Of a stretch of 64,000 nt of DNA, positions 1,826 through 37,331 are shown one piece after another. Each line of letters opens with the position of its first letter. The first letter of the stretch is position 1. Source of the stretch: Macrostomum lignano (taxonomy: Eukaryota). The stretch is taken from contig NIVC01001483.1 in assembly GCA_002269645.1 (NCBI GenBank), forward strand, positions 62,001 to 126,000, in the 5' to 3' direction. The position numbers and the translations under genes are program-made. The notes below the pieces were generated by a model, which was not told the origin of the DNA, did not search any database, and saw only the letters and a program-made list of their open reading frames with translations.

Positions 1826-4800
1826 TCACACCAGGAAATCATGTTCCATAAGCTCCGTTGCCGACTTTCTCTGATTACGGTTTTTGAAGGTACAGAATTT
1901 GTAAAATTCAGAGAGCTCAGCTGAGCAGCTTGTCGGTAGAGCAGGAGCGCCTTCATTTATCTTTTTTCCAATTCCAAACATGCTTTTTATGTCGTCGAAC
2001 GGTCTGATACCAGAGGCCATTTGGAAAACCGAGCAACCAAACGCCCATATGTCTGACCCTTTGCTGTACAGCGCAGAACGATTAATAGGATCGTCGGGAG
2101 CTATGAGTTCTGGCGACATGAAGGCTAACGTGCCCTTGGGCGTCGCAGAATTGTCATTGGCATGGCTGACTAAATTATCAAGTTTGATTGCCAGGCCGAA
2201 TCCAATCAGTTTAACTTTCTTGGTCTCAGAAAGTATTAATATGTTGCTGCAGTTGATATTTCTGTGGATCACTGGCTCATCCAGATTATGAATGTATTTT
2301 AGAGCACTGCAGATCTACGAATAGGAATAGTAGGAGTAACACGAAACTGTTGAATATAAAGTGAAATTAATAGGAAAAAGCAGAAAAACAATAATCTACC
2401 CAAGCACCTACAATTGAAACATCCAACTTACCTGCTTGCTAAACTTTCGAATGTACCTTTCGGCAAGCGGCTTCTTATCAATATAAGTCTCCAAAGTGAC
2501 ACCCTCCAGAAGTTCCATGAAGACAACACATGTCGCATGATCCTTCTCAGCGATGTGCAAGAATTTGACAATGTTATCATGTCGCAATCGGCACAGGTTC
2601 CTATCGCTCGTTATCGCGTTGATACTGCTTGCATTGTTTGGCTGATCGCCCTGCTGCACTTGCAGTTTCAGAGTTTTCGTAGCGCACTTGATTTGTTTGT
2701 CTGTAAGCACTTCGTGAATATCTGCGCAGCCAGCTCCTTCTCCACTAAGAAGACGAATATTTTCCCAGTCGCACAGAATTGGTGGGCTGTTAGAAAATGG
2801 TCAATGGTTTGAATGGTAAGCGGTGATGCTTCTTACTGAAAATTTTACTGGCTACATATCTAGACAGGATTATACTGGTACTATTATAATTGGATTCACT
2901 GTAGTATACTTAAAAACCAGCAATGATCATAAAGCACTCACTCAATCGTTAAAGCTTGCTACGTTTCTTTGCTTCATATACTTGTAACAGACTGTTTTAA
3001 AAGGCTGCTTTCGAACATTTAAATGCAGCTAAATTTCTTAATCTAGCAGAAAATAGGCGCTGAGCATGAGATGATCTCTACGACTCTCGAAGAGATATTT
3101 TCCTTACTGAATTATAACCTTAATATATGATTCATTTATTTATGTTAATATTATGATTTTAGTTTCAGCAGTTCATAAACTCTGCCCGATGCAGAGTTCT
3201 AGCTTCAATTTTTTATTCTCAGTGTACGAGTATACAACAACAGGACGTATTCCCTCCAGTTAAAGTTTCTTTGCCAATTCCTGCTTACCACGCCGGATTA
3301 TTGTGTCAGATTATTAAAGAGAATACGGTACTCGATGCTACAAGTACGAGCGTATTATGGAATTTTAAAACTGTACCTTTCAAAAAGAGCCAAAAACTTG
3401 TGCCCAAGAAGGTCCCCCGCCGACTTCCTGTCCTTTGGCTCTCGAGCGGTGCAGCAGTCATAGAAAGCTCGCAGCTCTGTTGAGCAGCCATTCGGGAGTC
3501 TCGGGGCGCCGTTCTTTTGCAGCTGCTCAGGAATATTGTATCTGTTGCCGCATTCGGAAAAAGGCAGCTCGCCCGAGGCCATCTGGTAGACTGAGCAGCC
3601 GAACGCCCAAATGTCCGACGATTTGCTGTAGTGTGGATTGCTCGAATCATCTTTACCCCCCAGCAGCTCTGGTGCCATGAATGGCATAGTGCCTTTGGGT
3701 TCCGGATTGGAAGCAGAGATGTGGCTTACTGACTGCTCAAGCTTGATTGAGAGGCCAAAATCAACCAGTTTAATTCGCGTTTTGTCAGCGAGAACAACAA
3801 TATTTCTGCAGTTGATGTCTCTGTGGATCAGGGGTGGCTCTTGGCTGTGAATGTACGCCAGAGCGCTGCAGATCTGAGAAATCGTTCAGAGAGTGAGCTG
3901 CGGCATGCCAATGAGTCGTTAACATTATTTACTTACAGTATTATAAAATTATAGGATAACGGTCTGACCTGTGTGCTGAACAGCCCGATGGTCTCTTCAT
4001 CCAGTTTCGATGACTTAGTAATAAATGTATCCAAGGAGCAGCCATCAAGAAGCTCCATGAACAAGACAACTGTCGCTGGCTCTGGCTGACAAATGTACAG
4101 ATATTTGACAATGTTGTCATGCTGCAGTTCGCATAGGTTTTTCTCGGCATTGAGAGATCTGTCAATTTTTTTACGCACTTCGGCTGGCTCATCTGCATTG
4201 AGCTGCATTGGCAGTGCAATAGTTTTTGTAGCACATCTGATGCCAATGTCGGTCAGCACCTCGTGAACGGTACCAGAGGCACCTCGGCCAAGAGTGCGGA
4301 TTTTGTTCCAGTCGTTATCAAACAGGTGGCTGCCCGACCTAAGATTTGGTGAATTTTTATTCGCTTCATGTTCAATTTTCAAAGTTTTTTTTGTTCAGCA
4401 TTTTCAAAACCAGTTTACTGACAGCTCATTCAAGTCGAATGGACCCCATGGGCAGTAAAATGGCTATCTGCTCATTTTTGTGTAGTATGATATTTGAATA
4501 GGATGAAAATATTATCTTTAAAACAAAATTATTGAAACCAAGGGTAAATATTATGTAGTGTTTTGCTGTCACCTGTCACAGTCGTCGCAAAGGAAGTCAC
4601 AAATTCAAATTCACAGTCTATATTATTTTTGCATCGGCTATACCTCATATTCAAACAGTGACTCACCTCGAGCGAGTGCGGCCAGCCGGATTTGTTTCTC
4701 TATGATCCGCCTGACTTACTCGTAGCTCTTGAACTTCCTTCAGCAAAATATTCATCACTTTGGAATGACCTTCGTCGGCAGCGCGTTTCGCTGCTCTCAG

Positions 4801-4947
4801 ACACATCGCGCTTTTATCTACTTCGATCTTTTTGACAAGATACTTTACCACTTCCAAGTTACCATCGGCTGCTGCGGATTCTAAGAAATGCGAGTCAGTG
4901 TTTGTACTTGCAGTAGCACCTGCATTAGCACCATCCGTTTCGCTCAT
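1826..4947 (-). CDS. Spliced gene, copy A: ankyrin-like exon + STE/MAP3K-like Ser/Thr kinase + pseudokinase (~663 aa)
   Basis: Exons 4947-4667, 4338-3969, 3873-3377, 2786-2432 and 2314-1826 have GT-AG ends and join in frame (phases 2,0,2,0). Kinase 1 has GRGASG, CATK, HRD, DFG, APE and SDIWAFG. Kinase 2 has a degenerate Gly loop, HRN and GFG. Further 5' exons are possible. Confidence 0.75.
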
Positions 4948-5318
4948 TTTCAGCGTTGTTTTCTTTAGATGATCGTGCTCAGGCCTCGCTCGTTCAAACG
5001 TCTTATTCCTAAAATTGAACACGAACTTGAACTTAAATCCAATTTCTCACTTGGATTTGCTATATCGATTGGTTTTTTAGTCGAATGTCCGCTTTTTTGT
5101 TAAACGTATGCAAAGTTATTGAAAATATGCACATATACCTATTTGTGCATATACTCCGACAGGCGGGCCACATGCAAGCCTGAAGCCCAATTATCCCACC
5201 CTCGGGTCCTTTGAAACTTCACAATAGCAATCTAGCCCGCTCATTAAGATTTGCCTCTTTTCAACTGTCTTCTTTCCCAGCTTTTTCCCATTTCCCATTT
5301 CACTTCCTCAGCTCTCCT

Positions 5319-6736
5319 ACTACTAAGGGATTCCGTATCCGTCGATTTTGGAGGTGAGGTGGGTGTCAAAATTGGCTGGCGCCCCCCAAGAACCAATCGC
5401 CTGCGGTGATCGATACGCGTATCGATAACGGCGCCCGCGCGCCGCAGGCGCCAAGCGCCGTGCAGGCGCCCCGATATGTACACCCTCCCGATATGTACAC
5501 CCTCCCGATATGTACACCCTCCCGATATGTACACCCTCCCGATATGTACACCCTCCCGATATGTACACCCTCCCGATATGTACACCCTCCCGATATGTAT
5601 GCGCCCCGATATAAGTAGTCATCGATATGAACTTATTGATTTTGTAGTCATCGATACGTACCCTCGCAGGCACCGTCTACCTCTCTCTACCTCTTACCCT
5701 ACCCCTCACCTGGCCTCTCTCCCTCTCTCACCCACATCTCAACTAGAGGAATCGAACCTAGGCCATACCCATACAAAAGCAAATACGGTAACCACTAGGC
5801 CAATACACGGTGGGTATAGGGATCAAGAAGAGGTTTTTAACCCTGTAGAGTGAGTGCGCCGAGGCAGGGGCAGAGAGCAGCCACCCCGTCCACCCGGCTT
5901 GTGTGGCCAGCAGCAGGAAGTGGGGGCAGAGTGGGACAGAGGCAGCCCCGGCATGTTGCAGCAGGAGGCATGGACGGCGACAGAGTGTATATGTGTGTAT
6001 ATAAGTCACCCACCCCCGCGGAGAAGAACCGTACAGAGGACAGAGAGCTCCCCCTGTTGCAGGCCAGGGACAGAGAGGCAGACAGGGTATGCGGGTTAAA
6101 GGGGCGTGCGAACAGTCAGGGAGCCACGCGAGGATAGAGTGGAGGAGCAGAGATGTGTATGGGCAGAGAGCCGGCCACGCGAGGGCGGTGTGAGGGAACA
6201 GAGAGAAATATGGAGCAGGACAGGAGGGAGATGCCCCTGCCTCCGCGGACTCACTGTACAGGGCTGCGTCAGCATCGGGGTTAAAACCTCTTCTCGCTTC
6301 CTATACCAAACCGTGTAGTGGCCTAGTGGCTACCATATTCGCTTTTGTATGGGTATGGCCTAGGTTCGATTCCTCTAGTTGAGATGTGGGTGAGAGAGGG
6401 AGAGAGGCCAGGTGAGGGGTAGGGTGAGAGGTAGAGAGAGGTAGACGGTTCCTGCGGGGTACGTATCACTGACTACAAAATCAATACGTACATATATATG
6501 ACTACATATCGGGGCGCATACATATCGGGAGGGTATACATATCGGGGCGCATACATATCGGGAGGGTGTACATATCGGGGCGCCTGCGGCGCGCGGGCGC
6601 CGATATCGATACGCGTATCGATCACCGCAGGCGATCGGTTCTTGGGGGAGGCGCCAGCCAATGAGAGGCGAGGAGCTAGCTAGGGTTGACACCCACCTCA
6701 CCCTCAAAATCGACAGATACGGAATCCCTTAGTAGT
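5319..6736. mobile_element. Non-autonomous mini-Polinton (fold-back element, ~460-525 bp TIRs)
   Basis: Termini ACTACTAAGGG...CCCTTAGTAGT. 6-bp TSD TCTCCT at 5313-5318 and 6737-6742. Arms ~5319-5845 and ~6277-6736 are inverted repeats around a ~430-bp spacer. No credible ORF. Confidence 0.85.
5470..5588 (+). repeat. 17-nt tandem repeat (CCCGATATGTACACCCT) x7 in the left TIR of the mini-element
   Basis: Direct count. The right arm (~6505-6580) has fewer, variant copies. Confidence 0.9.
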
Positions 6737-8639
6737 TCTCCTTTTACTCTCTTCTCATCTCTCTCGCGTTTTCATTCTCCTCACAATTCTCTCATGCCCT
6801 CTTTTCTCTTTGCTCTCTACTCTTTTTGTCCCTTCCTAACATTGTATTTCATCTGGCCCGTAGCCATGAGCTGGATTCTTTATCTGGTCCTTGAGGTAAA
6901 ATGTTTGTCGATCCCCTACTGGTGTAGATTCCAAGAGTTTTTGGTAAGATCAGTGTGCCCGTCACATTCCGTTAGTTCTTACTCGTAGTCCCACTTCATA
7001 CGCTTTTATTACCTAGATTCGAAACCCGACGGGCAAGCAATTTCACATATAATCCTTTATTGTCAACTAAATTAATATACATGTAAACATGTACATGTAA
7101 AAACTTCTTTCATAGCCTGTATTATAAAATTTAAGGCTAATACAGTTTAGTTGGGGGGGGGGGAGGGATAAAAACACTGACAGCTTTTCGGCGTAGCGGA
7201 GAGACACTACAGATTGCAGGTGATAAATTTCAATATTACATGTTATTGTTCTGTAAATGTATGTACAACAAATTACGCAGTGTGGAAGGCCCCATTAACT
7301 GAATTCAAGAGGGCTGCGAGTTAAAAAATTATACCTCAATCATAAAAGACGAATTATTTTTGGTAGAACAGCACGCTTGATAATGAGAAGTAAAAGAAAG
7401 GAGATTGCGAGCATTTTCATAAAGTAGAATTCTGGTAGAACAGCCATATGAAAATGCTCGCAATTATTTTTGGCTTACCGAGCGTAAGCACCAACGGACT
7501 ACTGGATTGAAAAACAGTGAAGATCCGCAAACGATTATAGGGAATGCTCGTATAGATGCAGATTCCAAAAGCAAGAGTTTATTAGACAACTTAACAGATC
7601 GCCACTGCAGAAGTGCTGCTATGCAGTTTTCTTTCATACGAAATGAGGTTGCGTGGGCTTGTCTTCAAATTCTGTCAGACTGTAGCTGAGAGTACATAGG
7701 TAGTTAGTTGTACAATCGCTCTGTCTAATCTACAAAAGGCTAATTATGTACTGAATGCTATGTACGCATACGGGGAGAGTTAACGCACTGTACTGAGACC
7801 CCATAGCGTACTGAGGGAACAAATTCCTACTAAAAAGGAACTATCTCTGTGAACAGAAACATTTCGTAAGTAGTGCGACGTGGTCTAGACTGAAAATGTC
7901 TGCCCTATCAAAGACGGAAAATGAAGCATTTATTGCAGTGGCAGTACAGCAAGGTTTAAAGCAGAGTACAAAATGGTTATCTAGATAGAAAAAACGAAAG
8001 AAAATGTATAGCACTACGCAAATTTGGACTTAAACGCGGTAGGTAGTGTCTGTCTATGTGGGTCTGGGACGATCGCACTCCGCAATCCTACCGTCCTCTG
8101 TCTGGCCGTACAGTCATCACTGTATGGCCAATGCACGCACACGTGTCTGCGCCCCCCCCCCTCTCCTCTACAAGCAGAGCTGGCCCAGGGACTTCTCTAT
8201 ATAGCATCTGGACTGGAAGCTCCCCACCCGCATATAACTTACAGTTGCAAAAGCCTTCCCAAAATAGCTTAGATCCTATAGTTACATCGGCCATCTTAGT
8301 TAGCTGCATGGCCATTATGCATTTACATTGCTATAAAAATCATGAGCATAATAAAAATTCATTCAGAATGATTTAGATTTCTTTTTGTAAAAAGAAATGC
8401 TCACAAATTAGCAGCTACTACAGCAGAAGACTTTCCGGAAAGCTTGGCGATCTTTCGCTTTCCTGCCCGATCACTATTGGAAACGTCTTTCACTAAATTT
8501 TTCATCATGCAATTAAAGAATGCCTTCAACAGTCCGGTCTTGACGACGTCGTGTCCTTTTGTGCATACAGGTGGTCAGATGTGCAAAGCACTCCAGAAAC
8601 CTGGCGTCGTCTGTCATTTCGTCAACGGGTCTATGAAAT

Positions 8640-8795
8640 TTGCTTGCGATAAGTTTGCTTGCGGAATTTTGCTTGCCGAAGTTTGCTTGCCGAGCTTTAT
8701 TTTGCTTGTCGAACTTTCTTTGCCGAAGTTTACTTGCCGAAGTTTGCTTGCAGGAAATTTGCTTGCCAAGGTTTGCCAGCCAAAGTTTTCTTGCG
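8640..8795. repeat. Degenerate short repeats (TTTGCTTGCCGAAG-like), with inverted copies near 9412-9450
   Basis: Visible repeated motif; possibly subterminal repeats of a decayed DNA transposon. Termini not found. Confidence 0.5.
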
Positions 8796-8941
8796 GAACC
8801 TTGAAGAACCTATTTTTGAGCTCTTGTATTTCTAATTTTTATTTCTAAGATTCATGGAAGTCGCCTCTGCTATAGTGTTATGATTTTGTATGAGGATATG
8901 GCGGATTATTAAATTTTATGTACCAATTATGTTATTATAGT

Positions 8942-8999: not shown

Positions 9000-11165
9000 G
9001 CATTATTATACATTAGCATCACTACAATTATCATACCTGCTCAATCGTGCTTAAATCAGTAGCTACAAAGGTTTACACTGTTACCGATCCCTATCTTCTT
9101 ACCTATACTAAATATCTAATCATTCTGTACGAGTATACTAAATTCTCCGAGTGAAACTCAATAAGCCTAGTTTGAAAGCTTACTGTCAAGTCAGTTTACG
9201 TTGACGCTGATAAGGAATCCGTTTGCAAAGCATCTGTAGTATGTAATATTTGACTGACAACTTCGCAAACAATCAAAACAAGCAAGCAAACAAGAAAATA
9301 TTTTACCTTGCAATTATGATTGTAATTGCCTTGCAACTGTGATTGCGAGTTTCTATGAAGCAGACAGGGACTACTCAAACATTTTTTTGATGTTTGAGCA
9401 GACATCAAAATTCCGCAAGCAAAGTTCGGCAGGAAAAGTTCGGCAGGAAAAGTGATAGCAACATAATTTATACCGTTTCTAAAAGCTAATATGCATGTAT
9501 GTCCCGGCATGGGCCCCGACCCCCTCTATAGGGTTTAGAAATTAAGCCAGAACAATTAGAAATGGGCATAGGCTGAGCCTATAATAGTGCAAGCAGCGCA
9601 TGGCAAAGCTACAGCAGCTCCCAACAATTTCTGGCAGAGATCAAAGGCGAGACGGCAATTTGACCTGGACGGTTGACAGGCGGTGACGGCCGGCCGGAGA
9701 ATTCTTAATGAGCCCGGCGCGGAGGCCGCTCCTGGAGAGGAGCTGCGGGCAGGCCCGGGACCGACGCCCAACCCCGACTGGCGTGGCAACCGAGGGGTGG
9801 ATGCGTGGGCCGGCCCGCACAGAAGGACAGTGAACTGAGCTCCCCCCAGATGCTCTAACGCAACCAGAGCAATCCGCTAAGTCTAACCATCTAGCCCTCG
9901 CCCCCGTAGTTATGGGCATGTCTAGTGCTGTTTAATTACATGCGCTGTGCTGTGTAAACCTCGCCGTCGTTAGGAAAGCGGTTCCCCACCTCATCGGCGG
10001 GAGGGGATGAAATTGTAGAGCTCATAAAAATATACGCAAACTGCAAGCCCAGAGAGACACTTAATTTCTCCACTTATTGGCCTCTCGGCTTCTGGGCTGG
10101 TTTTAGATTTAGAAATGTATTGCAATAATATTAAAGAAAAGCAACTCCCGGCCCGGTCTTGTCATTTGCTCCACCGCTGTTGGATGGCAGAAGATAGTTT
10201 CGGTGCTTGAACATTAAAAAACCTTGCGCAATACCTTCACAGTTTCTCCGCCTCCCCAACCATAGCAGAGGAAGAGAAGGGTTAGGGGTAGAGGGTGAAT
10301 TGAAGTGCAATCAGGATGCTGTGCCAGAATAATTCATTTGGGATTCGTATTCAAGATGTTCTCAAGTTTTCTTGCAACTGCAATTTAAGATGCCAAGAGG
10401 AGTAACTAGTTTTATAGCTAGAGTAGCTACTAGAGTTTAACTAAAATTGCAACTAGTTTTAAGATGCCTGCGAGCACGGGATACAGTTGAATCTGCATAC
10501 ATGTACGCGGCATTTCTTGCCCGTGCATGCTATTGAGCTCATGTTGATTTAAAAATGGAACGAAACAACCCCAAAGAATTATTGCAGATCAGTCGGGTAT
10601 TTCAATTAACTTGGATTATAATTAGCTTCCAGTGAGAATTAGTTGGTGCACTTACAAATTACGCATGGACATGTAAAAGCCCTACTATTTAATGGAATAA
10701 ATTATATGGAATCATTTTTAGGTTTTGGGTTTTAACATTTTGGTAATAATTATGCTTTGATGCTTTGATGACAACGACAAAAATAAACATTCAATGACTA
10801 TTTGTCATTGGGTCAAGATCAGACCCTTGGCTGGGCCTTTGGCTTTGGTGATCTAGTAGTTCTTGTGACGTTGTCATTTACAGTGCAGTTGGGTAATTTA
10901 ATGTACGCCAGAGCGCTGCAGATCTGAGAAATGGTTCAGAAAGTGAGCTGCGGCATGCCAATGAGTCGTTAACATTATTTGCTTACAGTATTATAAAATT
11001 ATACAATACCGGTCTGACCTGTGTGCTGAACAGCCCGATGGTCTCTTCATCCAGTTTCGATGACTTAGTAATAAATGTATCCAAGGAGCAGCCATCAAGA
11101 AGCTCCATGAACAAGACAACTGTGGCTGGCTCTGGCTGATAAATGTACAGATACTTGACAATGTT

Positions 11166-11785
11166 ACTACGTATCGTGCAGTTAGAGCCGGGTTTTGGAG
11201 GTGAGGTGGGTGTCAGAGCCAATGCAAATTCAGCGCCTATCTAAATACATTAGACCGATTCTAATTGGTCCAGAGTCATTATCTGAGATATGCATGTAAC
11301 TCTCATGTAAATCTAATTATACATGTAAATCAGTGTACATTCCCAATTGTGTCGTACAGAAGCGACGACCAGTACAATATAGTACGCATAATTAGCGCTC
11401 CGCAGTTGTTGTACGCAGAAACGCGCGCGCCCCCAGCCCCGCACAATGCAGCATTGGTGTAGCGCAGAATTAACTGTCCATATTAACTGTCCATATACCA
11501 AAAATTGGCAGAATTAACGCGCGCCGACCCACCCCATAACTGTCCATATTATTACTTGTCCATATTTACTGTCCATCCCAAAAATTGGCAGAATTGTAGC
11601 GTCCGCCCACCCCATAGCTGTTCGATCAAACCCAAACTTCGTGTACGCACAGAATTGTAGCGCCCACCCATCCAAGAAAATATTCTGTCGCCTCCCACAA
11701 TTAATTGGCGGCCCCACGCGGAGGCATGATGAGTCAGTCAGCCGCTGTAAATCGCCGCTATCCACCCCTCTGCTGCAGCCTGTTA
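11166..11785. repeat. Left TIR of the Polinton-like element
   Basis: Reverse complement of ~20785-21294, with many small indels and an extra ~80-bp internal duplication. Confidence 0.85.
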
Positions 11786-11939
11786 TATCCACTCACACCA
11801 TACTCCATCCCTCTAGAATTCTGTCCTCCGTAGCCACTCCGGGGCAATTACGTCATACCCAACCCCTCTCCCAAATAAGTTTTCAAAAGGCGTATATATA
11901 TTTACACAAAAAGCCGGCCGAGCTTTGATACGTATATAT

Positions 11940-12569
11940 TTATTTAGCATACACAATTGGGTGACGACCCAAAATGTTTGAATAATAGCGAGCAGGAGCA
12001 TTTTGCAAACAGTTTACAATCAAGTATGAGTAGGGGTCGCGAGTAGCATCCTCATACGTTTTGACAAAACTTTTTGGATTAGTGGGGACCAGCTGCCTTG
12101 CAATATGAGACACTGTGCTGGCATCCCGTACATTGCGGAATAAAACAAGGTAGTTCGAATTGAGCGACTGAGTTCGGTGCTCCTTACCCTTTGCAAACAG
12201 GTTTTGCACAAGATACCAAAGTCGGAACCCCACGTGGGAGACTTTGCGCGTGAAAAAAGTTGTAAAAGCGCCACTCTTTTCCATGGCATGCATTTGGTCG
12301 TCGACGACAAGCAGAATATTTGGTTCAGGGACATATTGTTCAGGATCACATGTACACGAACGAAAATTTACAGGGTACGGCAATTCAAACAGTTCAGGAT
12401 CCGGATAGTGGCCAAACCAGTCTACGCGAATCGGCTTCGGATCTTGAAAAAATTCTTGTCTCAATAGGTTTTTCACAAGTGTGGTCTTGCCGCTTTGAGC
12501 CACCCCAGCAAAAATTGCAGACGTTTTGGGGGCAAATTTTAAAGAGTCGGGGTCTATTGTTTGATACAT
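11940..12569 (-). CDS. A32/FtsK-HerA-type genome packaging ATPase
   Basis: Walker A GVAQSGKT, Walker B LLVVDD, and QNLF..RTQSLNSNYLVLFRN motif typical of Polinton ATPases. ATG at 12569. Confidence 0.85.
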   Translation of the reverse strand: MYQTIDPDSLKFAPKTSAIFAGVAQSGKTTLVKNLLRQEFFQDPKPIRVDWFGHYPDPELFELPYPVNFRSCTCDPEQYVPEPNILLVVDDQMHAMEKSGAFTTFFTRKVSHVGFRLWYLVQNLFAKGKEHRTQSLNSNYLVLFRNVRDASTVSHIARQLVPTNPKSFVKTYEDATRDPYSYLIVNCLQNAPARYYSNILGRHPIVYAK

Positions 12570-12592
12570 TTTGATAGGCCGCCCAATCATAT

Positions 12593-13042
12593 TTATGGAT
12601 GATGCTGCTTTATTTGTAGACAGTGATTCTGCACCATCAAGTCGTTCTCGTAAAGATTTGTGCTATAACAGTCACGCAATATTTTTTCAATTGACAGACC
12701 CTCCAAAAAGTGTTTTTCAGCCACAAATATTACATGAGCCCCGCAGGTCACACTCAGCGGATGCTGTACAGGATGCCGATTCATGGCCACCTCCACAGGG
12801 ACATACTTTGCGATCCACAACTTTAATAAATCTGGCACAGGATCGATACACAAGGGGTCAAAAAATGTCACGCTCTCATCGGCATGAAGACAAATTAAAG
12901 CCCAGTGAGTGCCCGGTAGATTGCCAGTGTCAAAGTTAATCACGTATGCAGCAGGATAAACAGGCTGCGGAATCCTGTCAACGGGTGTTACTCGAACAGG
13001 GACAGGTAGTATTAGACGTTCTAATATATCTAGACTATTCAT
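12593..13042 (-). CDS. Adenain-like capsid maturation cysteine protease
   Basis: GTHW, FFDP and Q..TCG catalytic motifs. Confidence 0.85.
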   Translation of the reverse strand: MNSLDILERLILPVPVRVTPVDRIPQPVYPAAYVINFDTGNLPGTHWALICLHADESVTFFDPLCIDPVPDLLKLWIAKYVPVEVAMNRHPVQHPLSVTCGAHVIFVAEKHFLEGLSIEKILRDCYSTNLYENDLMVQNHCLQIKQHHP

Positions 13043-13081
13043 ATCGGCATGAATATGGCCGTTATTTGAGAATTTTTGTTT

Positions 13082-14363
13082 CTACACGTAGTCTAGAATA
13101 ACCTGACGACCGCGAGTGATTTGCACAGTATTGTCAAAGTAGCCAAACACCAACACGTTGATTCCTGCGGCCAAGGCAGCAGAAAACTTTATTTGTAGCG
13201 TCAGATTCCCTCGCTCGCGAGGCATGCTATGCCCGCCCAGCTCCATGTCGGGCATGAGATTCCAGGCGAAGAAGCAGTAGCCAGCTCCATAGTCGGAATA
13301 TGATACGTCAATATCCAGGTCCCGATTCATCTTTCCTAGGCTTTTTAGTAGCATGGCATACTCGCGAGCATAGTTATGAACACCGAATCGAGGAGTAAAC
13401 GGTTGTCCACACAGACTGACACCGTCCTTATACAGTGCCACACTGTCGGCACCAAATGGCTCAAAATTAAACGGGTTATGTGTAGCCACACCGTTGTACG
13501 CGCCGCTGTTTACCATGCCAACAACCACTAGTTTAGGCTTTTGTTCAGGAAATATATTGTTGATTGACATGTTCCGAACACCGCCAGCCACTGAAGTATT
13601 GTGCACAACAAGTCGCTCAATCGGATAGATTGCATTCTGTTTGCCTAGTTGTTCTTCAATCTCCAATGCCAATTGGGGGTTTGCCTTGACGCGGCGCACA
13701 TGTAGTTTGGCACTCTCGAGTACTAGCCGCGCATCAACCCCGTCCGCGTGGTTTTCCAGAACGAAGCCGGAATTGTGCATGGTCAGCGTAATTACCATAT
13801 CAGTGTATGGCAGTAGCATTCGGTCGTTGGTAACAAAAAAGTCTAAACTAAGAGGTCCATAAAGGTGAAAGGTGCGTGAGTTTGCTGCCATCGCCTTCGG
13901 GCTACAAGCCAGGATTTCCAACCACAGCCATTTGACCTCCAGCGTCCTTTGCGTAGCCCATCATTCTCAGTTGATTGGTTTTTGAATCGTGTCCGTAATT
14001 CAAACACGTGCGAATATAGGCCTTGTAAGCGTGGTTGTTATTGCTCGACTCTACGTGTGTCCCGTTGATTGTCAACGTGACGTTTTTAAACATGCTTTCA
14101 AGGACGTAATTGACCGGCGCAACATTCGAATCAGCAGCAAGATTTGTACCATTAGACTGCTTAACGCGGGCCTTAATCTCGAGGTCAATGTCGTTAAGAT
14201 CGATAAACGTCTCACCACCAACAATCCTAAATTCGACCACGCTGGCATTTTCAACACTGGCAACAGGGTGAACTTCTTCAGTGGTGGCGCTAATTGCAGC
14301 AATTTGGTGTGCGCGAGGAGCAAATAGCTCGAATTCCGACTTTGTACACAGGCACTCAGTCAT
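13082..14363 (-). CDS. Polinton major capsid protein (double jelly-roll), frameshifted near 13900
   Basis: The 153-aa and 279-aa ORFs read as consecutive parts of the Polinton MCP pattern as recalled (C.KSE..LF, EF.I.G, PVN..L.S.F, AY....LNY, GMV...AYNG...NPFNF). Confidence 0.8.
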
Positions 14364-14405
14364 TTTTCTTTCAACAGCGGCTTAGTGTGGTGCTCTAATA
14401 GACAA

Positions 14406-14774
14406 TCAGTTATTGGCACGGGCTTTTTTATTTATAGAGTCGAAAATATCAGAATGCTGCAGTCTTTTTCTCGTTTTTTTGTTAGTCATCTTTCTTCGTC
14501 TTTGTCTGCCGCTACCACGTTGTGCGACTGTGTCCTTGAAAGCATCTTTAGCTGCCTGGACAGAGTTACGCAATGCTGCTTCTTTCAAGTTCCCGCCTTG
14601 ATCGAGTGTGTCGTTAACTGTTGTAGCTAGGGCTCGTGTTCCGTGGCGAAGAATATTTTTGCCAAAACTCTTTAAAATTGGCAGGGCAAATCGGGCAATG
14701 CTGCCAAACAGGCCGTTGCCGCGCTGTGCACCGGAAAATACCGGTAAAGCTCCTCCGATCAAGATTGAAGGCAT
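14406..14774 (-). CDS. Small basic virion/core-like protein with an amphipathic segment
   Basis: LIGG, QRGNG and QRGSG putative protease sites; amphipathic LFGSIARFALPILKSFGK; Arg/Lys-rich tail; lies between the penton and MCP genes. Confidence 0.6.
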   Translation of the reverse strand: MPSILIGGALPVFSGAQRGNGLFGSIARFALPILKSFGKNILRHGTRALATTVNDTLDQGGNLKEAALRNSVQAAKDAFKDTVAQRGSGRQRRRKMTNKKTRKRLQHSDIFDSINKKARANN

Positions 14775-14818
14775 ATTGTCGATCAGTTGCTACCTTTTAT
14801 TCGTGAAAACTTCTTTAT

Positions 14819-15972
14819 TTATAGCTTAATTTCACGAATGTTGATCGATAAAACAGTTTTACCTCGAAGAATCCGATCCATTAACTTGCCCATATCGTCA
14901 CAGATTTGCACCTCAATGGTTTTGAATGGGTGTTTCACCAACGGTAAGTAGGATGGATTGACAAACTCGTAGTATCTCGTTCGCCGTATACCTTTTCATT
15001 CAAAGGAATTGCCCCAAGCAGGGGGACTTTGACGTCTCCAACAATGGCAGAGTCGACAATATTTGAATAGATGTACATAGTTTGTACACCATTTGTTAAA
15101 TCGATTGGTCGTTTAGCGGTCTTTGGAGTTTCATTGAAAACATCTTCGCGAAAGCCGAGAATGGCAGCAAGCTCTCCAATGTCGAATAAAATGTTTTCAA
15201 TGGGTTTGTACTCACACCGGTTCAGAAAAGGGTTGTAGCTGAATGCATCCACTCTCGTCGCTGGACTTATTGGGAGCTTTGAAACGACGCTCCAAAGCGC
15301 TCCATTAACATAATTTAAGAGCTCGTCAGGCGTGCGGTAGAATCCTTTAGCAATCCGCAGTGACGTTCTAGAAGGCCAGACACTCTTTTCAAACGTTAGA
15401 GTCATGGGACTCTCTATGGAGGAGGAGGACTCCAATTCTATAGCGAATACTAACGAATTTCTTGGGTGTAATAAAAAAGTCGTTTCTTCGATATTTGATT
15501 TATTTCCAGCGTCGTCAACCTTTTTAAACATGCTGCACACATTACTGGACAGCCTAATGTTCGCACCATACCATGATTTGTTCACAATTGAAATTTGGCC
15601 TTCCTGTGAGCGCTCAATGCAAATCATCGCATTATCGTCTTGCTCATATTTTAGAGCGGCGATGATTGCATCAACCACTTCGTTGGCTGTTGATAGCCCC
15701 GCGGCGAGAGAAACCGACGCAAACTGTTTATACGTGGAGGCGGGTTTTTCTCTCACCTCAATGTCAATCACTTCATCCTCGGGAGCGTTGGTCAGGACAT
15801 CAACCATTCGATTATCGGGGACGGTTTTGAATTCTTTACAAAAGTAGATCCGTTCGATGCAGACTTCATGATTCGGAAAGTGGAGGGTGTCGGGCAAATT
15901 AATGCTATAATGTGCCGAATTATTCTCAGGATAGTGCTCAACGCACGCATTGCTAGGTAGGAATAGATGCAT
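14819..15972 (-). CDS. Minor capsid protein (penton-like), frameshifted near 14975
   Basis: LPSN...YPEN and YIYSNIV....VGD...PLL motifs. The adjacent frame continues YYEFVNPSYLP...IEVQICDDMG to a TAA at 14821-14819. Confidence 0.75.
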
Positions 15973-16006
15973 TGTAATATACTACACGTTTCGAGTGTAT
16001 GTGTGT

Positions 16007-17073
16007 TCATCCTTGTCTTATATTTATAACTTCCTCAACTGGTACAAATGCATTGAACGACTCGGGATAGCCGCGCCAACTAACGAAATGATGAGCGACA
16101 CCATTGATGATGACATTGCGACGCAGAATTTTGTCTATAACAAAGCGATCCGGTCGAACCGTCTTTGAAAGTTCATTATAGTAGAATCGACCCTCGATTT
16201 GTTCTCCAGATAGGTCGGAAATGCGATAAAAATGAGGCGGTCCCGGGCATACTTGAGACACAACGTAAACTTCTTCGCTGTACAAATCGTATGCTTCCTT
16301 GTCAAAGGCTCGACGAGATTTTGAAATTCTGACAAAGTCCCCCTTTTGGTAAACTGGTTCATCATATTCAGGATCCTTGTAGAGCTTTTCCCACAATTCT
16401 TTTTGATTGTGCAGACCGACACTCGAAGGTTTCATATCAATAGTAGAGTGTACTGTGTTGTTGTAACTTTTAACCAATATTGGCAAATAGTCGATCCAAC
16501 GCCACGTGTTTTTATGCTCAAAGTAGCGAGCTAAACGTTTTCGGAGAGTCCTAATCAGCCTTTCAGCCATATTTGCCTTGTATACAGAGTTTGTACTGTA
16601 CATTTTGATATTATGGCTTTCAGTAAGTTCTGCATGCGATTGTTATAAAACTCGGTACCTCGATCAACGTGTAGATATAAAGGCTTAATGGGGAAGTCTT
16701 TGATCATGCTTTCAAAAGCCTTTGGAGTGTCGCTTTTCAATTTTATTGACTGACAAAAAGCCAATTTACTAAGCACGTCAATTGCAACTAGAATATATCG
16801 ATGACCATCATTCCATTGTTCGTATCGTGACATGTCCATCAAATCCTCTTGCACAGTTTCCATGAAGCCTCCCGACATTACTTTTCCGGTTCGGAATTTT
16901 CTTTTAACCCTCTTGTGCCGGGTGTAGCTCGATTGGGTCTTCAGCCATTCGTCGGTTTGGCGTCTCGTCAGGGAGGGGACCAGCCGTTTGGCCTCCTGAT
17001 ATACACGGGCAGCATTTGTAAAAGCGGCGTCCCCCTGTTCGTACACTCTCCGAAGAGCGGTTTTCACCCTCAT
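16007..17073 (-). CDS. Retroviral-type DDE integrase with C-terminal chromodomain-like region, frameshifted near 16610
   Basis: QEDLMD, IDVLSK, HVDRGTEF and AERLIRT motifs; C-terminal IDKIL...FVSWRGYPESFNAFVP. Confidence 0.85.
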
Positions 17074-17210
17074 TCGCAACTAGATTCGATGCACAGCATG
17101 AGTAATTACACTTGAACTCCACAGACGGTTTGTCTGAGCAAAGCTTTGAAGTTACAGCTGCGGCACCCATGATCCAAAAACAGATTATAAATCATGAAAA
17201 TGATTTCTAT

Positions 17211-17885
17211 TTATAGTTTTTTTAACGTCTCGTATTTCACTGCTGGTTTCTGCCGCCTCTTTGGTTCGCGAAGTTGGTATGAAGCATGCCTGTAGGCATC
17301 GCTGCCACGATCTTCATATTTTTTTATTTCATTCAGGCCACTGGCTTGGTCTTTGTGGAAGTCGCTGTAGAAATCATTAGTTCCAATTGCTTGCTCGACT
17401 AAAAAATCGTCTCGATCCGGATCCGTGCCGACTTCTTTTTTCACACTGACTTCTTCTTGTTGGCGTCGTCCTAGTAGAGCTTTTGCAATATCTGCCTTTT
17501 CGGCCAGGGCCCAAAAAGCGGTACTATACTTTGGGCTTGGACGGTCGCGCCTTTCATTCGATGTAATCTCCTTCAATAGATCGAAAATATTGCTTCCTGG
17601 CCAGGTTTTTCCATCAAATACAATTTCCCACGACTTGTTGTACTCCAAATTTGGGTATCTTTCTGTCAGCATGTCCCAAACACGTTGTTGTCGTTCAGGA
17701 AAACGATTACTCTTCTTTTGCTTGATCTGACTTAGTTTATTTTGGAGTTGAGTGTTGTATTCAATGAGTTTTTCATATTCTGTTTTGGATGCAATTTCTT
17801 GGGGTGCGCCTTGACTTAGTCTATTAAATTCTTCTTCTGGTACAACAACGTATTTATTCATTTTAGCGACCAAGTAGTCCGCCAA
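17211..17885 (-). CDS. Uncharacterised Polinton-type protein (224 aa)
   Basis: Open ORF in the element. WEIVFDG...PGSNIFDLL resembles a recurrent Polinton protein (recalled, not searched). Confidence 0.55.
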   Translation of the reverse strand: MADYLVAKMNKYVVVPEEEFNRLSQGAPQEIASKTEYEKLIEYNTQLQNKLSQIKQKKSNRFPERQQRVWDMLTERYPNLEYNKSWEIVFDGKTWPGSNIFDLLKEITSNERRDRPSPKYSTAFWALAEKADIAKALLGRRQQEEVSVKKEVGTDPDRDDFLVEQAIGTNDFYSDFHKDQASGLNEIKKYEDRGSDAYRHASYQLREPKRRQKPAVKYETLKKL

Positions 17886-18219
17886 ACAGGCTTGATATTA
17901 GCGGTGCAGCAACAGATGCGAGGATGGGTAGAAAACCACCGACTTGAGGATTCGAGAGAAGCATATTCTTCTTCCTATTTATAGACAATTTTGTGTCTGC
18001 CAATTCACGCAATGATCTTCTGTATCGCTTTAATCGCAGATACTGTTTCGGAGAAAGATCGATATTTCCCCGGAGCACGTTGTGACTCAATTCACAGAGA
18101 CAATGAATCAGTTCCTTGCCTGCACCTCGAATAATGGCCCGCCGAAGAGCGGGACGGGCTTTGGCGAGCTCTGCGAGCTCGCCGCGACAAGAACATAGTC
18201 TGGAGATTCCGTTTGTCAT
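17863..18219 (-). CDS. Small basic Polinton protein with C-terminal amphipathic peptide
   Basis: LIHCLCELSHNVLRGN..L motif; basic body; QVGG followed by FLPILASVAAPLISSLFGGLLGR. ATG at 18219. Confidence 0.6.
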   Translation of the reverse strand: MTNGISRLCSCRGELAELAKARPALRRAIIRGAGKELIHCLCELSHNVLRGNIDLSPKQYLRLKRYRRSLRELADTKLSINRKKNMLLSNPQVGGFLPILASVAAPLISSLFGGLLGR

Positions 18220-18359
18220 TTTGTTTAGCAAAAAGATGTTTGTTGCAGTGCACTGCAATTTATGCACAATATATTTATAGACAATTTCATAGCAGCTTGT
18301 ACGTACATACAAATTCGGTACAGTGGTAAAGCAGTAAAGTTACGCAACAGCTACATGGA

Positions 18360-18686
18360 TTAGACATGCAAAACGCTAGTCACATGATCGTACATTTTAC
18401 AGAGCTCTTTAAAGTTTCGTATTCCAAGGAAAACAAGGCGGCCATTCTTTCCGCATAATAAACATTTAGCATTGCGAAATGGAGACTTTATTACTATTCC
18501 ATTGAAAACTTCACACTCCCACTTCACCCAGTGGGACCCGGAGTATGCAATTTGGAAAAAGTTTGGCCATCTGTCTACTTCAGCGCGGTAAGTACTAGTG
18601 GTAACAACAACAGAAATTGGTTTACATTGAGGAAAAAGACGCAAAACTTGGTTGACTGAGCGACAACCGAATACAATTGCAGACAA
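18360..18686 (-). CDS. Hypothetical protein (108 aa) in the Polinton-like element
   Basis: Same strand as all other element genes; CLLC motif; no recognisable family. Confidence 0.4.
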   Translation of the reverse strand: MSAIVFGCRSVNQVLRLFPQCKPISVVVTTSTYRAEVDRWPNFFQIAYSGSHWVKWECEVFNGIVIKSPFRNAKCLLCGKNGRLVFLGIRNFKELCKMYDHVTSVLHV

Positions 18687-18817
18687 AGAACGCTGAAAAA
18701 AGTTGATTGTACATTTTCATATTCGCAAATTGATAAGAGCTCTTGGTCTGCGAAATGTCCGTGCGCTCGCCCAGTCCAAGTCAGGCATGCGGCTCCATTT
18801 CGCGCAAAACACTCGGT

Positions 18818-19570
18818 TCACACACTCGACGTTCTGCAAGTAGATTTTTCGACAGTTTTTACTTTCGCATCCTTCTTGGGGGCTTTCGACCGCTTCTTTG
18901 ATTCGTTGGCTGCTACTAGTTTCGATTGATGCTGTCGCTTTCTGGCCTGATTTTTAGGCACCTTTGGCTGCTTCTCCTTGACAAGCTTTGGTGGTTTCTT
19001 TGCTTTCTTGCTTACTTTCTTGGCGCCTACCTTGATTTTTGGAGGTGGCGTCCAATAGCAACGATCGAATGCCTGTTTGGCTTCTTCGACAAACTGTAGC
19101 TGTTGAATTTTTGGCATTGCGGTCAAAACAGCGTCTCGAATCACGGCCGTGTCGAGAGTAAACAGAATCCTGTAGTAGCCGCTCTTGGTTTTGTAATCCT
19201 CTACAGGCAGTCCGTTTTGGTCGTACATTTTAAAGTCGTGAGCCAGCCCAAACGCTGCACTGTCACCTCCAAACGCTGGGTTATAGCCCAGCAGAGCTAG
19301 ACTTTCGCTGGAAAGGTGCTCCGCCACAGTGTTGAAAGTGTAGGGTATGCAGCTTTCAATGTGTTTTTGTGCAATGATGATGAATTCGCGACCTTCGTTG
19401 TCAGTACGCACGCCCTTGACGATCAAAACAGGGACCGCATTGGCCAAGTAGAGAGGTCCCTGTTCGTCATATTCAATGTCAAACGTTTCAACCCCGTTGA
19501 AGCTCGGACCTCGCGGTTTGAGTGCCAGCAGCTCTCGCTTGATGCAGTTGAAGTCTTGCACTGTCTCCAT
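18818..19570 (-). CDS. Hypothetical protein (250 aa) with Lys-rich C-terminal tail
   Basis: Long ORF with a real ATG, ~55-60 nt downstream of a TATATAAG box. Confidence 0.6.
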   Translation of the reverse strand: METVQDFNCIKRELLALKPRGPSFNGVETFDIEYDEQGPLYLANAVPVLIVKGVRTDNEGREFIIIAQKHIESCIPYTFNTVAEHLSSESLALLGYNPAFGGDSAAFGLAHDFKMYDQNGLPVEDYKTKSGYYRILFTLDTAVIRDAVLTAMPKIQQLQFVEEAKQAFDRCYWTPPPKIKVGAKKVSKKAKKPPKLVKEKQPKVPKNQARKRQHQSKLVAANESKKRSKAPKKDAKVKTVEKSTCRTSSV

Positions 19571-19579
19571 GTCTCTTGT

Positions 19580-20530
19580 CTGTTTAGAAAAATTTGCAGG
19601 TACGGGCGCTTGCAGATGCTCCGGGCTGGTGCTTATATACCCGAGAGTCTCAATAAGTTTTTGTTTTAATTACACGATAACGAGCTTTTTACAGAGTTGT
19701 CGTTATCGAGGATTCCGGAAAAAATGAACCTTTTGTTCCTATTTTCGGGTGCTGGCGTTGGAGGTGTGCTGAAATCCTTGCTCCAAGTTGCTGGTAGTTC
19801 AAGCTTTGGCGGCCTGTTCCTCTTGTGCTTTGGCAGCCAAAAATTCCAAATCTTTTGTTGCTCCTCCCACGACGGATTATACAGATCTTGATGGTTCCGA
19901 AAACGTATTTTTTGGCGATGCTCTTTACTTAGTATCGGAGCCAGTAATCTCTCCATTCGTGCTAAATCAGCTTTGAATCTCATTTTGTCCCGTAGTTGCT
20001 CATTTATCCTGGCTGCTGCGTAGTCTTGGCTGTCGTAGGGGCCTTGATCAATTTCCTCGACCTTGGCATTGAAGGTGACTAATCGCTCGGAAATCGGTTT
20101 GCTGTGGCAAATGCACAACCAGTCAGCAGATTTTTTCAAGGCCTCATATTCGTCTTTTTCCTCGTTCGATAATAGGGGGTAGGCTCCGGAAATCCAGCTC
20201 ATTTCTTGTCAAGCACTTGCTGCGTTGTTCGCACTAGTGGTGGGGATGTTATTCGAGCTTGAAAAACTGCCGAGAATCCGAGAAAAATTTGCAGGTACGG
20301 GTGCTTGGTGCCCAGGGTTGGTGCTTATATACCCGAGAGTCTCAATAAGTTTTTGTTTTAATTACATGTTAACGAGCTTTTTACGGTGTTGTCGTTATCG
20401 AGGATTCCAGAAAAAATGAGACTTGTACCTATTTTCGGTGCTGGCGTTGAAGGCCTTGCTCCTTGCTCAAAGTTGTTGGCAGTTCATGCTTTGATGGTCT
20501 GATCCTCTTGTGCTTTGGCAACCAAAAATT
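19580..20530. repeat. Duplicated ~260-280-bp cassette (19580-19860 and 20275-20530) containing a TATA box
   Basis: Near-identical blocks such as GGTGCTTATATACCCGAGAGTCTCAATAAG occur twice, each upstream of a minus-strand ORF. Confidence 0.85.
19666..20202 (-). CDS. Hypothetical protein (178 aa)
   Basis: ATG-initiated, downstream of the second TATATAAG copy. Confidence 0.55.
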   Translation of the reverse strand: MSWISGAYPLLSNEEKDEYEALKKSADWLCICHSKPISERLVTFNAKVEEIDQGPYDSQDYAAARINEQLRDKMRFKADLARMERLLAPILSKEHRQKIRFRNHQDLYNPSWEEQQKIWNFWLPKHKRNRPPKLELPATWSKDFSTPPTPAPENRNKRFIFSGILDNDNSVKSSLSCN

Positions 20531-20784
20531 GCTTGTCAAACACTGCGTTTTCCACATGATTGGGTTGTTAATTGAACTTGGTGAATTTAGATAAACGGCC
20601 GAGAATCCAAATTTTCTTATTTATATTTGCTGTCTGAACAAAATTGGTTTGGCATTTACGAGAATATTTCATGCATAGAAGTTTGTGTTTTCAGACCTTG
20701 ATGACGTGTCTGGCTATAAAGTTAGCATTGTGGCTCGACCGGGTTGTTGCGTAACACTGCTGCTGGTAGCTATAGCGGCCAGCG

Positions 20785-21294
20785 CAGGGCAGAGGGGTGG
20801 ACAGCTGCGATTTACTGGCTGACTGACTCATCATGCCTCCGCGCGGGGCCGCCAATTAATTGTGAGAGGCGACAGAATATTTTCTTGGATGGGTGGGCGC
20901 TACAATTCTGTGCGTACACGAAGTTTGGGTTTGATCGAACAGCTATGGGGTGGGCGGACGCTACAATTCTGCCAATTTTTGGTATATGGACAGTAAATAT
21001 GGACAGTTAATTCTGCGTACACCAATGCTGCATTGTGTGGGGATGGGGGTACGCGCGTTTCTGCGTACAACAACTGCGGAGCGCTAATTATGCGTACTAT
21101 ATTTTACTGGTCGCTTCTGTACACAGTGTACACTGATTACATGTATAGATTTTACATGAGAGTATAAATGTCTCACATAATGACTCTGGACCAATTAGTA
21201 ATCGGTCTAATGTATTTAGATAGGCGTTGAATTTGCATTGGCTCTGACACCCACCTCACCTCCAAAATCAACAACAATCTGCGCATTACGTAGT
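20785..21294. repeat. Right TIR of the Polinton-like element
   Basis: Inverted match to 11166-11785. Confidence 0.85.
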
Positions 21295-23204
21295 AATGTT
21301 GTCATGCTGCAGTTCGCACAGGTTTTTCTCGGCCTCGAGACATTTGTCAATTTTTTACGCACTTCGGCTTGCTCATTGAGCTGCATTATATTGGCAGTGC
21401 AATAGTTTTTGTAGCACATCTGATGCCAACGTCGGTCAGCACCTCGTGAACGGTACCACAGGCATCTCGGCCAAGAGTGCGGATTTTGATCCAGTCGTTA
21501 TCAAACAGGAGGCTGTCCGACCTAAGATTTGGTGAATTTTTATTCGCTTCATGTTTAATTCAAATTTATTCTGTTCAGCATTTTCAAAACCAGTTTACTG
21601 ACAGCTCATTTAAGTCGAATGGACCCCATGGGCAGTAGAAATGGCTATCAGTTCATTTTTGTGGTAGTATGATATTTGAATGGGATGAAAAGATTAGCTT
21701 TAAAACAAAATTATTGAAACCAATGCTAAATATTATGTAGTGTTTTGCTGTCACCTGTCACAGTTTTATGTAAATCTATACTTATTCTCAGCAGTATTGG
21801 GTAATTTAATTTCATCTTACTATTTCTAATCACGATATTTTTTGTTTGTCTAACCGTAAGAAATGTATTTTATTCAAACTGTGAAAATGTAAAATAATGT
21901 TCTTGAAGTCGGACGATTCTAACAATCACTTTAATTTCGTTGTGATGACAGATGAATAAACGAATGCGTTCTTGGCTTGTGGGTGCAAATATAAACGTCA
22001 ATGCGCCTTAATTTATTTCTTTTAATATTTGTATAATCTATATGCAATCAAAGTAATTAACATCTATATTTATGCTCAAAAATGACTAGATCTAGATCTA
22101 CAATTCAATTGAAACTGGATCGACTGAATATGCCAGTATGCCAGTATGCCAGTATGAATATGCTCACTGGACTGGCTATGCCAACCTACACTGTACCACG
22201 TCGCCCATGGAGATCGTTTAAAATACGACAAGAATCTACATCCAGTAAAACAATAGTAGTAAAGTAAGTACGTAAAGTAAGTATCGCAAAAATAGAGAAC
22301 TCACTACTGAAAAAATAATTACTAAATAATAATACAATAATCAAGAACGCCGGATATGTCATAAAAGTGCGGGAATTCAATTGATACATAAAAATCTTTA
22401 CAAAAAGGCGGGTTCCGATCGCACTAACTAACTGAATTTACCGCACTTAGGTTCACCGGATTTTTAACTTTAATTTTAAGGCTTAATTCAAGCGCAATCA
22501 CCATCCACTCCACTCCACCAGCTCGCGCACGACTATCAGAAAATCATATTTGCAATTATACTACTACTATAGTAAGGAAGCACAAAGCACTATACATTGA
22601 TCCTACATTATTCCCATATTAACATTTAAATAAACGATTGTGCTACCGTTACCTAATTAACACATTCATTTTTATTCATATTTGTGATAGTACTGATACC
22701 AGTCCAGTGGCAGTGATAGTCACAATCCAAATATACTAAATCTTAATCCAAAACAAATATATCCGAATATACTAAATTTAGCTTTGGCTGCTAGCTAGCT
22801 ACCCATAGGCCTAGCTACATGTAACTAAATACACTAAATCTCTAAGATCTGTCTTATAATTCTAATTATATTGTCTATAGCTTAGGCCCTTACTGATCTG
22901 TAGGATTATAAATAAAATAAAATAGTATATCATACATACACAATATTAATTTTTTAAATTGGCCTAACTGGCTAACATTACAATTTTGAATTTATATATA
23001 TATTTCATTAGGAGATCATATATTACACCTAGCTGGTTGATTGGTCGACTTGCATTCAGCTTTAGATATGAAATAATATATGTTGCAGGGCATTTTCTTT
23101 TAATAATAATGGTGCATGACCAAGACTGCCACATACCAAGACTGCCATAGCTCTTACTGGCTACTAGAATTGAAGGAGAGCTACCAATCTTCCAGCATTG
23201 CTAT

Positions 23205-23603: not shown

Positions 23604-24319
23604 ATTGCTATTATTGGTTTGTGATGGGTTATAGAGTTAGATAAGTGAGAATTGTCCCAAAATTAGTCATTAATAAGACAAGTAAGTGGCTCAAAGCAAT
23701 TGCAAGTCAACTAGGGCAACTTAAAAAATATCTTATAAATAGTTCTTTTATAATTCAAATTGAATGAAAAAATGAGGAGCTTGGCTTATTCACCCACCTG
23801 GCCCACTCACCAGTTGTTTTCTTGTGGCCCTGTCCTATTAGCTCTCCTTATCTTACCCCTCCTTAGCACTAGGGGTCCCAAATCCTGGACATTTTACAAT
23901 CCCAGGATCCTGGACAAAAAGTTGACCCAATTCCGGGATCCTAGGCCAATCCCAGGATTAAACAAACAAATTTACAAAAAGCTTTCCATTGTCCACAAAA
24001 CAATTTCTCAACCAATTTGAGCATCATTTAAATTTCTACTTTCTATTTCTAGCTTATACTGCATTGATAAAATAGTTGGTTATTTTATTTCATTTTATTT
24101 AACCTCAGATTAGGATTGTTATCGCTGCACTAGTGTCTCTCTGCCTTAACACAGACCACTTGACACACACAGAGGCTTAAAAACAGAATCCAGTCCCTAC
24201 CCCACCCCCTTTTTCTATCCCTTTTCTTTTCTTCAGCTACGCCTGTGCCTTGCGGCAGGGCCTAGGCTAGTAGGCCTAGTGTCTGGCCATCGCCACTTGA
24301 CTTAGGCAGTTAGAGTGAG

Positions 24320-24717: not shown

Positions 24718-24892
24718 AACTAGAGTCTAGACTAGAGTCTAGTGACTATTAGTGCTTAATACAGTTGATTGATAATCACTTCATTCTCAGGATACAAAAA
24801 TTCTCTTAAAACTGTTAAATGCTAACTACAAGATGAAAAATATTCACATTTTGCAGTGTGAATTCCAATCCCATGCTTACTAGGATCCCAGT

Positions 24893-25930: not shown

Positions 25931-25974
25931 TAGGTCTTTTTAATTAGTTTTTTAATAAAAGCTAATAAAAAGTA

Positions 25975-37323: not shown

Positions 37324-37331
37324 ATATATGA

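Follow-up and report, generated by a model that had tools for sequence, protein, structure and literature searches.

Polintons (Mavericks) carry an integrase of the retroviral type and produce target site duplications (TSDs) of 6 bp, and the short motif repeated at their ends is thought to permit a protein-primed polymerase to initiate by jumping back (sections of PMC8097293). For vertebrates, the same sections give three end motifs, (AGT)2//(ACT)2, (AG)3//(CT)3 and (AC)3A//T(GT)3, and report that intact elements measure 12.7-24.6 kb and vary by only ~10% around 17 kb, from which their authors infer a size constraint. Elements with an incomplete gene set are also on record. In butterflies, polintons without polB occur in which loss of the gene coincides with LINE or LTR cargo and whose mobility is shown by structural variants (parts of 10.1101/2025.02.07.637071). 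Transpovirons, small linear elements with terminal inverted repeats (TIRs) that depend on a virus, are about 7 kb long, encode a helicase and occur in mimivirus particles (parts of PMC5499653). Replication and integration of Polintons have so far been deduced mostly from gene content.

The insertion described here, which we call the mini element, lies in a window (the whole stretch of DNA analysed, 64,000 nucleotides from Macrostomum lignano) that also contains a larger, Polinton-type neighbour. It is a Polinton-ended, gene-less insertion and not an autonomous Polinton. With intact vertebrate Mavericks, as presented in sections of PMC8097293, the mini element has in common a 6-bp TSD, a TIR length within their range and a short terminal motif whose repetition would suit jumping-back; it is unlike them in measuring 1.4 kb, having no genes and ending in 5'-(ACT)2//(AGT)2-3'. 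A Polinton end of the ACTAC//GTAGT type was not found described in the literature covered, the scope of which did not extend to Repbase or to supplements, the latter a possible place for invertebrate motifs; we therefore regard the motif only tentatively as novel. Among the 40 papers listed of 261, the string ACTACT itself occurs in one, PMC12945077.

Gene-less Polinton passengers are already known, and what is unusual here is the end motif together with an isolated 25-bp box. We take the N1 in the name Polinton-1N1_DR to designate a non-autonomous family, and presume the anatomy of that family to be Polinton-type ends and a TSD without genes. The mini element resembles this zebrafish element, which is named in a portion of PMC9341505, in just these respects; it is unlike it in its ACTAC end and in being linked to its partner by the 25-bp box alone. 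Like transpovirons, as portrayed in the parts of PMC5499653 cited above, it is a small linear element with TIRs, and unlike them it is 1.4 kb long, lacks a helicase gene and is known from its sequence alone.

Structure and insertion site of the mini element

The mini element spans 1,418 bp and has a GC content of 56%, compared with 39-47% in the adjoining 2-kb windows (Table 1). A preliminary description of this DNA had reported ACTACT...AGTAGT termini, an exact 6-bp TSD and long TIRs, all of which were found again: the right terminus, AGTAGT, ends at 6736, and TCTCCT stands on both sides of the element. The TSD is seen in a single copy of the element, and 36 of 11,175 random pairs of hexamers from the CT-rich tract around it are identical. 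The arms are ~500-550 bp long and identical in 434 of 463 aligned columns (93.7%), with nine gaps, the largest of which corresponds to a different number of 17-bp tandem units.

Table 1. Coordinates of the mini element, its parts and its surroundings within the window.
Feature	Position	Strand	Basis
Mini element, gene-less	5319..6736	.	sequence and junction contigs
Left TSD, TCTCCT	5313..5318	+	
Right TSD, TCTCCT	6737..6742	+	
Terminal motif ACTACT of mini element; positions 1-5 common to large element	5319..5324	+	
Variable linker of mini element, positions 7-25; 4-6/19 identical to large element	5325..5343	+	
Conserved 25-bp subterminal box, left end of mini element, positions 26-50	5344..5368	+	
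Conserved 25-bp box, right end of mini element; 23/25 identical to left one	6687..6711	-	
Left arm (TIR) of mini element	5319..~5872	+	
Right arm (TIR) of mini element	~6232..6736	-	
Perfect 18-bp palindrome in left arm, mirrored at 6605-6622	5409..5426	.	
17-bp tandem unit, 7.6 copies, left arm	5470..5599	+	
Mixed 16/17-bp array, shorter, right arm	6503..6583		
tRNA-type Pol III A box and B box, towards left end	5748..5802	-	
tRNA-type Pol III A box and B box, towards right end	6319..6373	+	
Purine-rich spacer, ~360 bp; left half at single-locus depth, right part resembling high-depth sequence	5873..6231	.	
TATA-type 9-mer GTATATAAG in spacer; also at 19632 and 20324 in large element	5997..6005	+	
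Interrupted host repeat, presumed hAT-type non-autonomous element, split by the mini insertion	5143..6920	+	
Polinton-type sister element, 10,129 bp, ends ACTACG...CGTAGT, TSD AATGTT	11166..21294	-	

The element had also been called non-coding, and it is: tblastn at E ≤ 1e-3 with 699 queries (686 ORFs of 80 related loci, introduced below, and 13 ORFs of the neighbour) produced no hit, hence neither a Polinton-type coding remnant nor an integrase or capsid module. Its own ORFs of 55-125 aa, which mostly read through the tandem array, were rejected as genes, and the spacer was rejected as a decayed palindrome since 17 of 200 shuffles do equally well. Classical MITEs are short (under about 800 bp), uniform and present in very high copy number. 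The name MITE, also given to the mini element at the outset, had to be dropped in view of its length and of a left spacer at single-locus depth.

Insertion into the middle of an unrelated repeat was corroborated in two ways. Both flanks align, in order, to one repeat copy with inverted ends at ~24314-24711 (minus strand), and contigs of other copies of the repeat join the two flanks directly, which shows that the mini element interrupts an older, very abundant repeat. The left inverted end of this repeat is unrecognisable at the mini locus. We take the repeat to belong to the hAT family, its inverted ends being of hAT type.

The mini element is real and no assembly artefact. The stretch or part of it is contained in 20 of the 24 sequencing runs listed, all from one organism, and at least half of its words are contained in 10 runs from three studies, among which the source sample may be included. 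In three of the four runs compared (X1, X3 and X4), an exact contig (5212-5362) covers the left junction; for the right junction, the contigs listed include one in X1 and X3 that departs from the window by 2-3 letters. An empty-site joint was not seen among the contig joints listed for the four runs, whose contigs drop rare variants. At two positions inside the right-hand box, 6702-6703, contigs from X1 and X3 depart from the window sequence, so alleles of the mini insertion, or close copies of it, have diverged.

The neighbouring element and a two-part end signal

The insertion site of the 10.1-kb neighbour is found with a single AATGTT in a paralogous host repeat, at 4110-4115. Its gene set comprises an A32-type ATPase, a protease-like ORF, a double-jelly-roll capsid, a minor-capsid-like ORF and an integrase. 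The ATPase is identified by the Atlas, with very high confidence, as an A32-type packaging ATPase, and the integrase, the only one of 13 ORFs named by Pfam, is of the rve type (E 2e-6, below Pfam's cut-off). An intact natural relative of the major capsid (P0001, 77-81% identical) has a double-jelly-roll fold like that of PBCV-1 Vp54 and of the Sputnik and mavirus capsids; intact capsid relatives with 80-81% identity come from records without context. Given that a PDB sequence search with the capsid and protease-like ORFs was blank and that Pfam names the integrase only, motifs, position and relatives are the basis for calling two ORFs protease-like and minor-capsid-like. Viral contigs, searched with capsid queries, yielded no relative.

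For comparison, 80 loci carrying the neighbour's capsid gene were used as related loci. Relatives of 8-9 of the 13 ORFs are present there, each in 11-80 of the 80 loci: the ATPase in 22, the protease-like ORF in 33, the two capsid pieces in 80 and 74, the minor-capsid-like ORF in 38, the two integrase pieces in 38 and 30, ORF 14406-14774 in 15 and ORF 17863-18312 in 11. With split genes counted once, the nine matching ORFs make seven genes; four ORFs have no relatives among the 80 loci. The capsid gene and the integrase gene are both split in two, with breaks near 13902-13921 and 16555-16603. Among the 21 related loci of at least 6 kb, none of which displays a complete TIR pair, 10 contain an ORF of at least 800 aa. 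One of these ten long ORFs, checked in the Atlas, is a DNA_pol_B_2 polymerase with high confidence, while Pfam, PHROGs and PDB returned no polymerase name for the long ORFs checked (5, 5 and 1, respectively). In the window itself, no polymerase gene was detected, 0 of 1,541 six-frame pieces matching a profile of the ten long ORFs at E ≤ 1. Without a polymerase gene and with split capsid and integrase genes, the neighbour cannot be the helper of the mini element, a role for which it was rejected, and is instead its sister. It resembles the butterfly polintons without polB (parts of 10.1101/2025.02.07.637071) in having no polymerase gene and yet TIRs and a clean TSD, and is unlike them in that no cargo was recognised and that only sequence attests it here.

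Two side observations concern this group. The neighbour contains an internal duplication of 260 bp (19586-19845 and 20281-20530, 86%), which carries the TATA-type 9-mer. A related Polinton (L003, 429-569), whose capsid is 32% identical to P0001, apparently begins with the canonical AGTAGT at 429, where part of a TIR is seen.

The four ends of the mini element and its neighbour, two each, have one build: ACTAC, a variable linker and a 25-bp box at positions 26-50, which holds TTTTG (position 28) and GGTGGGTGTCA (position 40). This build can be written as ACTAC-N(19-23)-TTTTG..GGTGAGGTGGGTG. A pattern derived from these very ends matches the window four times, exactly at the four ends, and matches none of 100 shuffles. 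Between the two elements the box is identical at 22-25 of 25 positions with the same offset, and the neighbour's own two linkers agree at merely 9 of 19. Over the first 100 bases, the longest substring common to both elements is 25 nt, the maximum in 500 shuffles being 10. Past position 50 no relationship is left between the arms: as many as 190 of 200 shuffles score equally well. The initial view that nothing beyond the terminal signal resembles the large element's TIRs thus overlooked a block common to all four ends. The Polinton link proposed with it is backed by stronger support than was first argued, namely the fixed-offset box, the ACTAC ends and the 6-bp TSDs on both elements, and Polinton-type integration of the mini element is well supported.

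These ends also bear on whether the mini element could be a non-autonomous member of another cut-and-paste superfamily, its end likeness having arisen by chance or exchange, which we consider highly improbable. In its long arms and their internal tandem repeats the mini element resembles Foldback-type elements, and its end motif is non-canonical; against this, the box is 25/25 identical, at the same offset, to that of a capsid- and integrase-bearing element of equal TSD length. Ginger transposons have TGT ends and 4-bp TSDs (parts of PMC2836005), and with ACTAC ends and 6-bp TSDs both the mini element and its neighbour were rejected as members of that group.

A box in the spacer had been put forward as a further tie to the large element. 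The TATA-type 9-mer is indeed present, but 2 of 100 shuffles reach the three matches that it has in the window, and as a link between the two elements it would be suggestive at most. Against the inner regions of the neighbour, the spacer is at chance level in three of four tests; in the fourth, where the matched part contains the TATA box, 1 of 200 shuffles does as well. With arms unrelated past position 50, the mini element is no simple deletion of the neighbour, and a plain internal deletion was rejected on this ground and on the chance-level spacer.

Sharing only five terminal bases and a box at fixed offset, the two elements form a natural deletion experiment that points to a cis signal; the few end bases that matter are probably ACTAC and the 25-bp box. 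The ACTAC lineage would escape any search that uses AG/AGT end motifs as a filter, like the one in the sections of PMC8097293 cited above. Neither viral contigs nor metagenome contigs yielded the ACTAC end signature.

Copies elsewhere and the origin of the short form

Related mini ends and arms occur at other loci. Contig depth, which is no copy number, was summed relative to the mini spacer in four of the 24 runs (X1, X3, X4 and X11), uncovered bins (X11; 5382-5453) being counted as holes and not as absence. In X1, X3 and X4, the terminal bin lies at 22-35 times the spacer depth and several arm bins at 4-42 times; the tandem array reaches 25-42 times, the inner left arm 5-29 times, 6102-6173 about 110-660 times and 6246-6317 250-390 times. 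In X11 the spacer is present, arm cover is almost nil and the terminal ratio is 0.7, and bin 5382-5453 is nearly uncovered in all runs (0-0.2). Several contigs related to the mini end show small indel differences within the linker, at 5336-5342. The spacer at 5814-6029 is at single-locus depth in all four runs, so the exact mini element has not been recently amplified. The preliminary description had the element mobilised in trans as a 1.4-kb unit; this is plausible, but the single-locus left spacer speaks against it, as does the finding that no second full-length copy or second TSD is among the contigs and loose ends listed for the four runs.

On balance, we think it probable, with reservations, that the mini element is a non-autonomous Polinton (Maverick) passenger that moved in its short form. 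A Polinton integrase made elsewhere in the genome would have inserted it, giving the 6-bp TSD, and it would already have been short at that time. The integrase, and perhaps a polymerase, would have been supplied in trans by an intact element with the same end type, other than the neighbour. If the mini element was copied outside the chromosome, the helper's protein-primed polymerase would start at the ACT repeat by jumping back. The 25-bp box may be where integrase, polymerase or a host factor binds, in which case its offset would matter and the linker would not, and the long inverted arms may allow a panhandle. Movement as a passenger is argued for by the 6-bp TSDs on both elements, the four-end signature and the combination of a fixed box offset with a free linker; by the Polinton-type nature of the neighbour, seen in its capsid fold, A32-type ATPase, rve integrase and relatives at capsid-sharing loci; and by the lack of a coding remnant, the raised end and arm depth in three of four runs, the indel variants in the linker and the precedent of mobile polintons without polB. 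Against it stand the single-locus spacer, run X11, the low arm bins and the lack of a second copy, a second TSD or an empty allele among those listed, as well as a helper with ACTAC ends not found in viral or metagenome contigs, arms that do not match past position 50 and an unlisted end motif.

Several of these observations would also fit a deletion in place, in which a longer Polinton of a sister family, using its own or a helper's enzymes, inserted here and then lost its interior, so that two arms and a short spacer stayed behind as a fossil that never moved as 1.4 kb. We judge this unlikely. In its favour, the left spacer is single-locus in four of four runs, the arms have diverged by 6%, with indels, and they are as long as Polinton TIRs ordinarily are (46-1,447 bp); among vertebrate Maverick loci, 96% are degraded (sections of PMC8097293). 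TIR-only Polinton remnants are known in C. elegans (a portion of PMC11414722), and there, as in the mini element, TIR sequence persists without genes; those are remnants of rearrangement, whereas the mini element has both termini intact and an exact TSD. Also at odds with deletion in place, the mini element contains no trace of a Polinton gene, and sequence matching the right spacer and the inner arm stands at ~100-660 times the spacer depth (three of four runs), above what a low-copy full-length element would lead one to expect, although it may come from a captured repeat that is unrelated.

A stronger form of the passenger interpretation would make the mini element a defective-interfering or satellite replicon that replicates extrachromosomally and is enclosed in Polinton capsids. 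The two-part end signal resembles a replication origin, the arms close a panhandle with a fold of -570.8 kcal/mol (a value with no shuffle control at that length), and both arms contain Pol III-type boxes. Nevertheless, we hold such a replicon to be improbable: the shared ends are explained by integration alone, and an extrachromosomal form was not seen in assembled contigs. The mini element had been thought small enough to be packaged, an argument that fails, because the size of intact vertebrate Mavericks, ~10% around 17 kb and read as a constraint (sections of PMC8097293), means that small size gives packaging no support; 1.4 kb is less than one tenth of that constrained size.

The boxes in the two arms point outward, with A and B boxes 44 bases apart, start to start. 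They match what we take to be the Pol III A/B-box consensus, and the B-box variant in the search was taken from the mini sequence. No match was found in 100 shuffles, a figure that overstates the case, the two matches being one event mirrored and the variant coming from the sequence itself. In the arms, ARAGORN found 0 tRNA genes, Rfam gave 0 matches at the gathering score and two at chance level, and the arm modules have fold z-scores of -0.35 and -1.06. A tRNA gene or known RNA family was rejected on these negative outcomes, with no cloverleaf; on a plain reading, the boxes may be a captured SINE head copied into both arms.

More speculatively, the ACTAC-end lineage could form a system of three tiers: an intact helper, elements with a capsid gene and no polymerase (the neighbour being one), and satellites devoid of genes, to which the mini element would belong. 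We put this scheme forward as doubtful. Satellites would be replicated as panhandles from a minimal two-part origin, ACTAC and the box at 26-50, might be packaged and might have both arms transcribed by Pol III into a small RNA, for which adenovirus VA RNA provides the analogy.

Other repeats and genes of the window

A third element, of 12.4 kb, occupies 24892-37324. It has inverted ends of ~300 bp that are 82% alike and is full of 24-, 25- and 21-bp tandem arrays; a TSD was not obvious at its aligned ends. Another repeat is present in two inverted copies that are 91% identical, at 3316-5072 and 43100-44792. The large element inserted into a third copy, 10900-11165 plus 21295-21764, and older copies lie near 2009-2716 and 45139-46082.

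A Gypsy-type gag-pol ORF of 1,204 aa (46727-50341, minus strand) lies within 46299-50496, and its start is overlapped by a 234-bp direct repeat whose two copies, at 46299-46532 and 50263-50496, are identical. This repeat is possibly a tandem or assembly duplication rather than a pair of LTRs. Ankyrin repeats and Mab-21 C-terminal domains are found in ORFs 51398-52210, 53404-56436 and 58715-60121, which we take to have the architecture of cGAS-like receptors; 99-bp and 34-bp tandem arrays occur within 51398-60121. Between the mini and the large element, at 8635-8798, lies a degenerate 14-bp tandem array of 11 copies.
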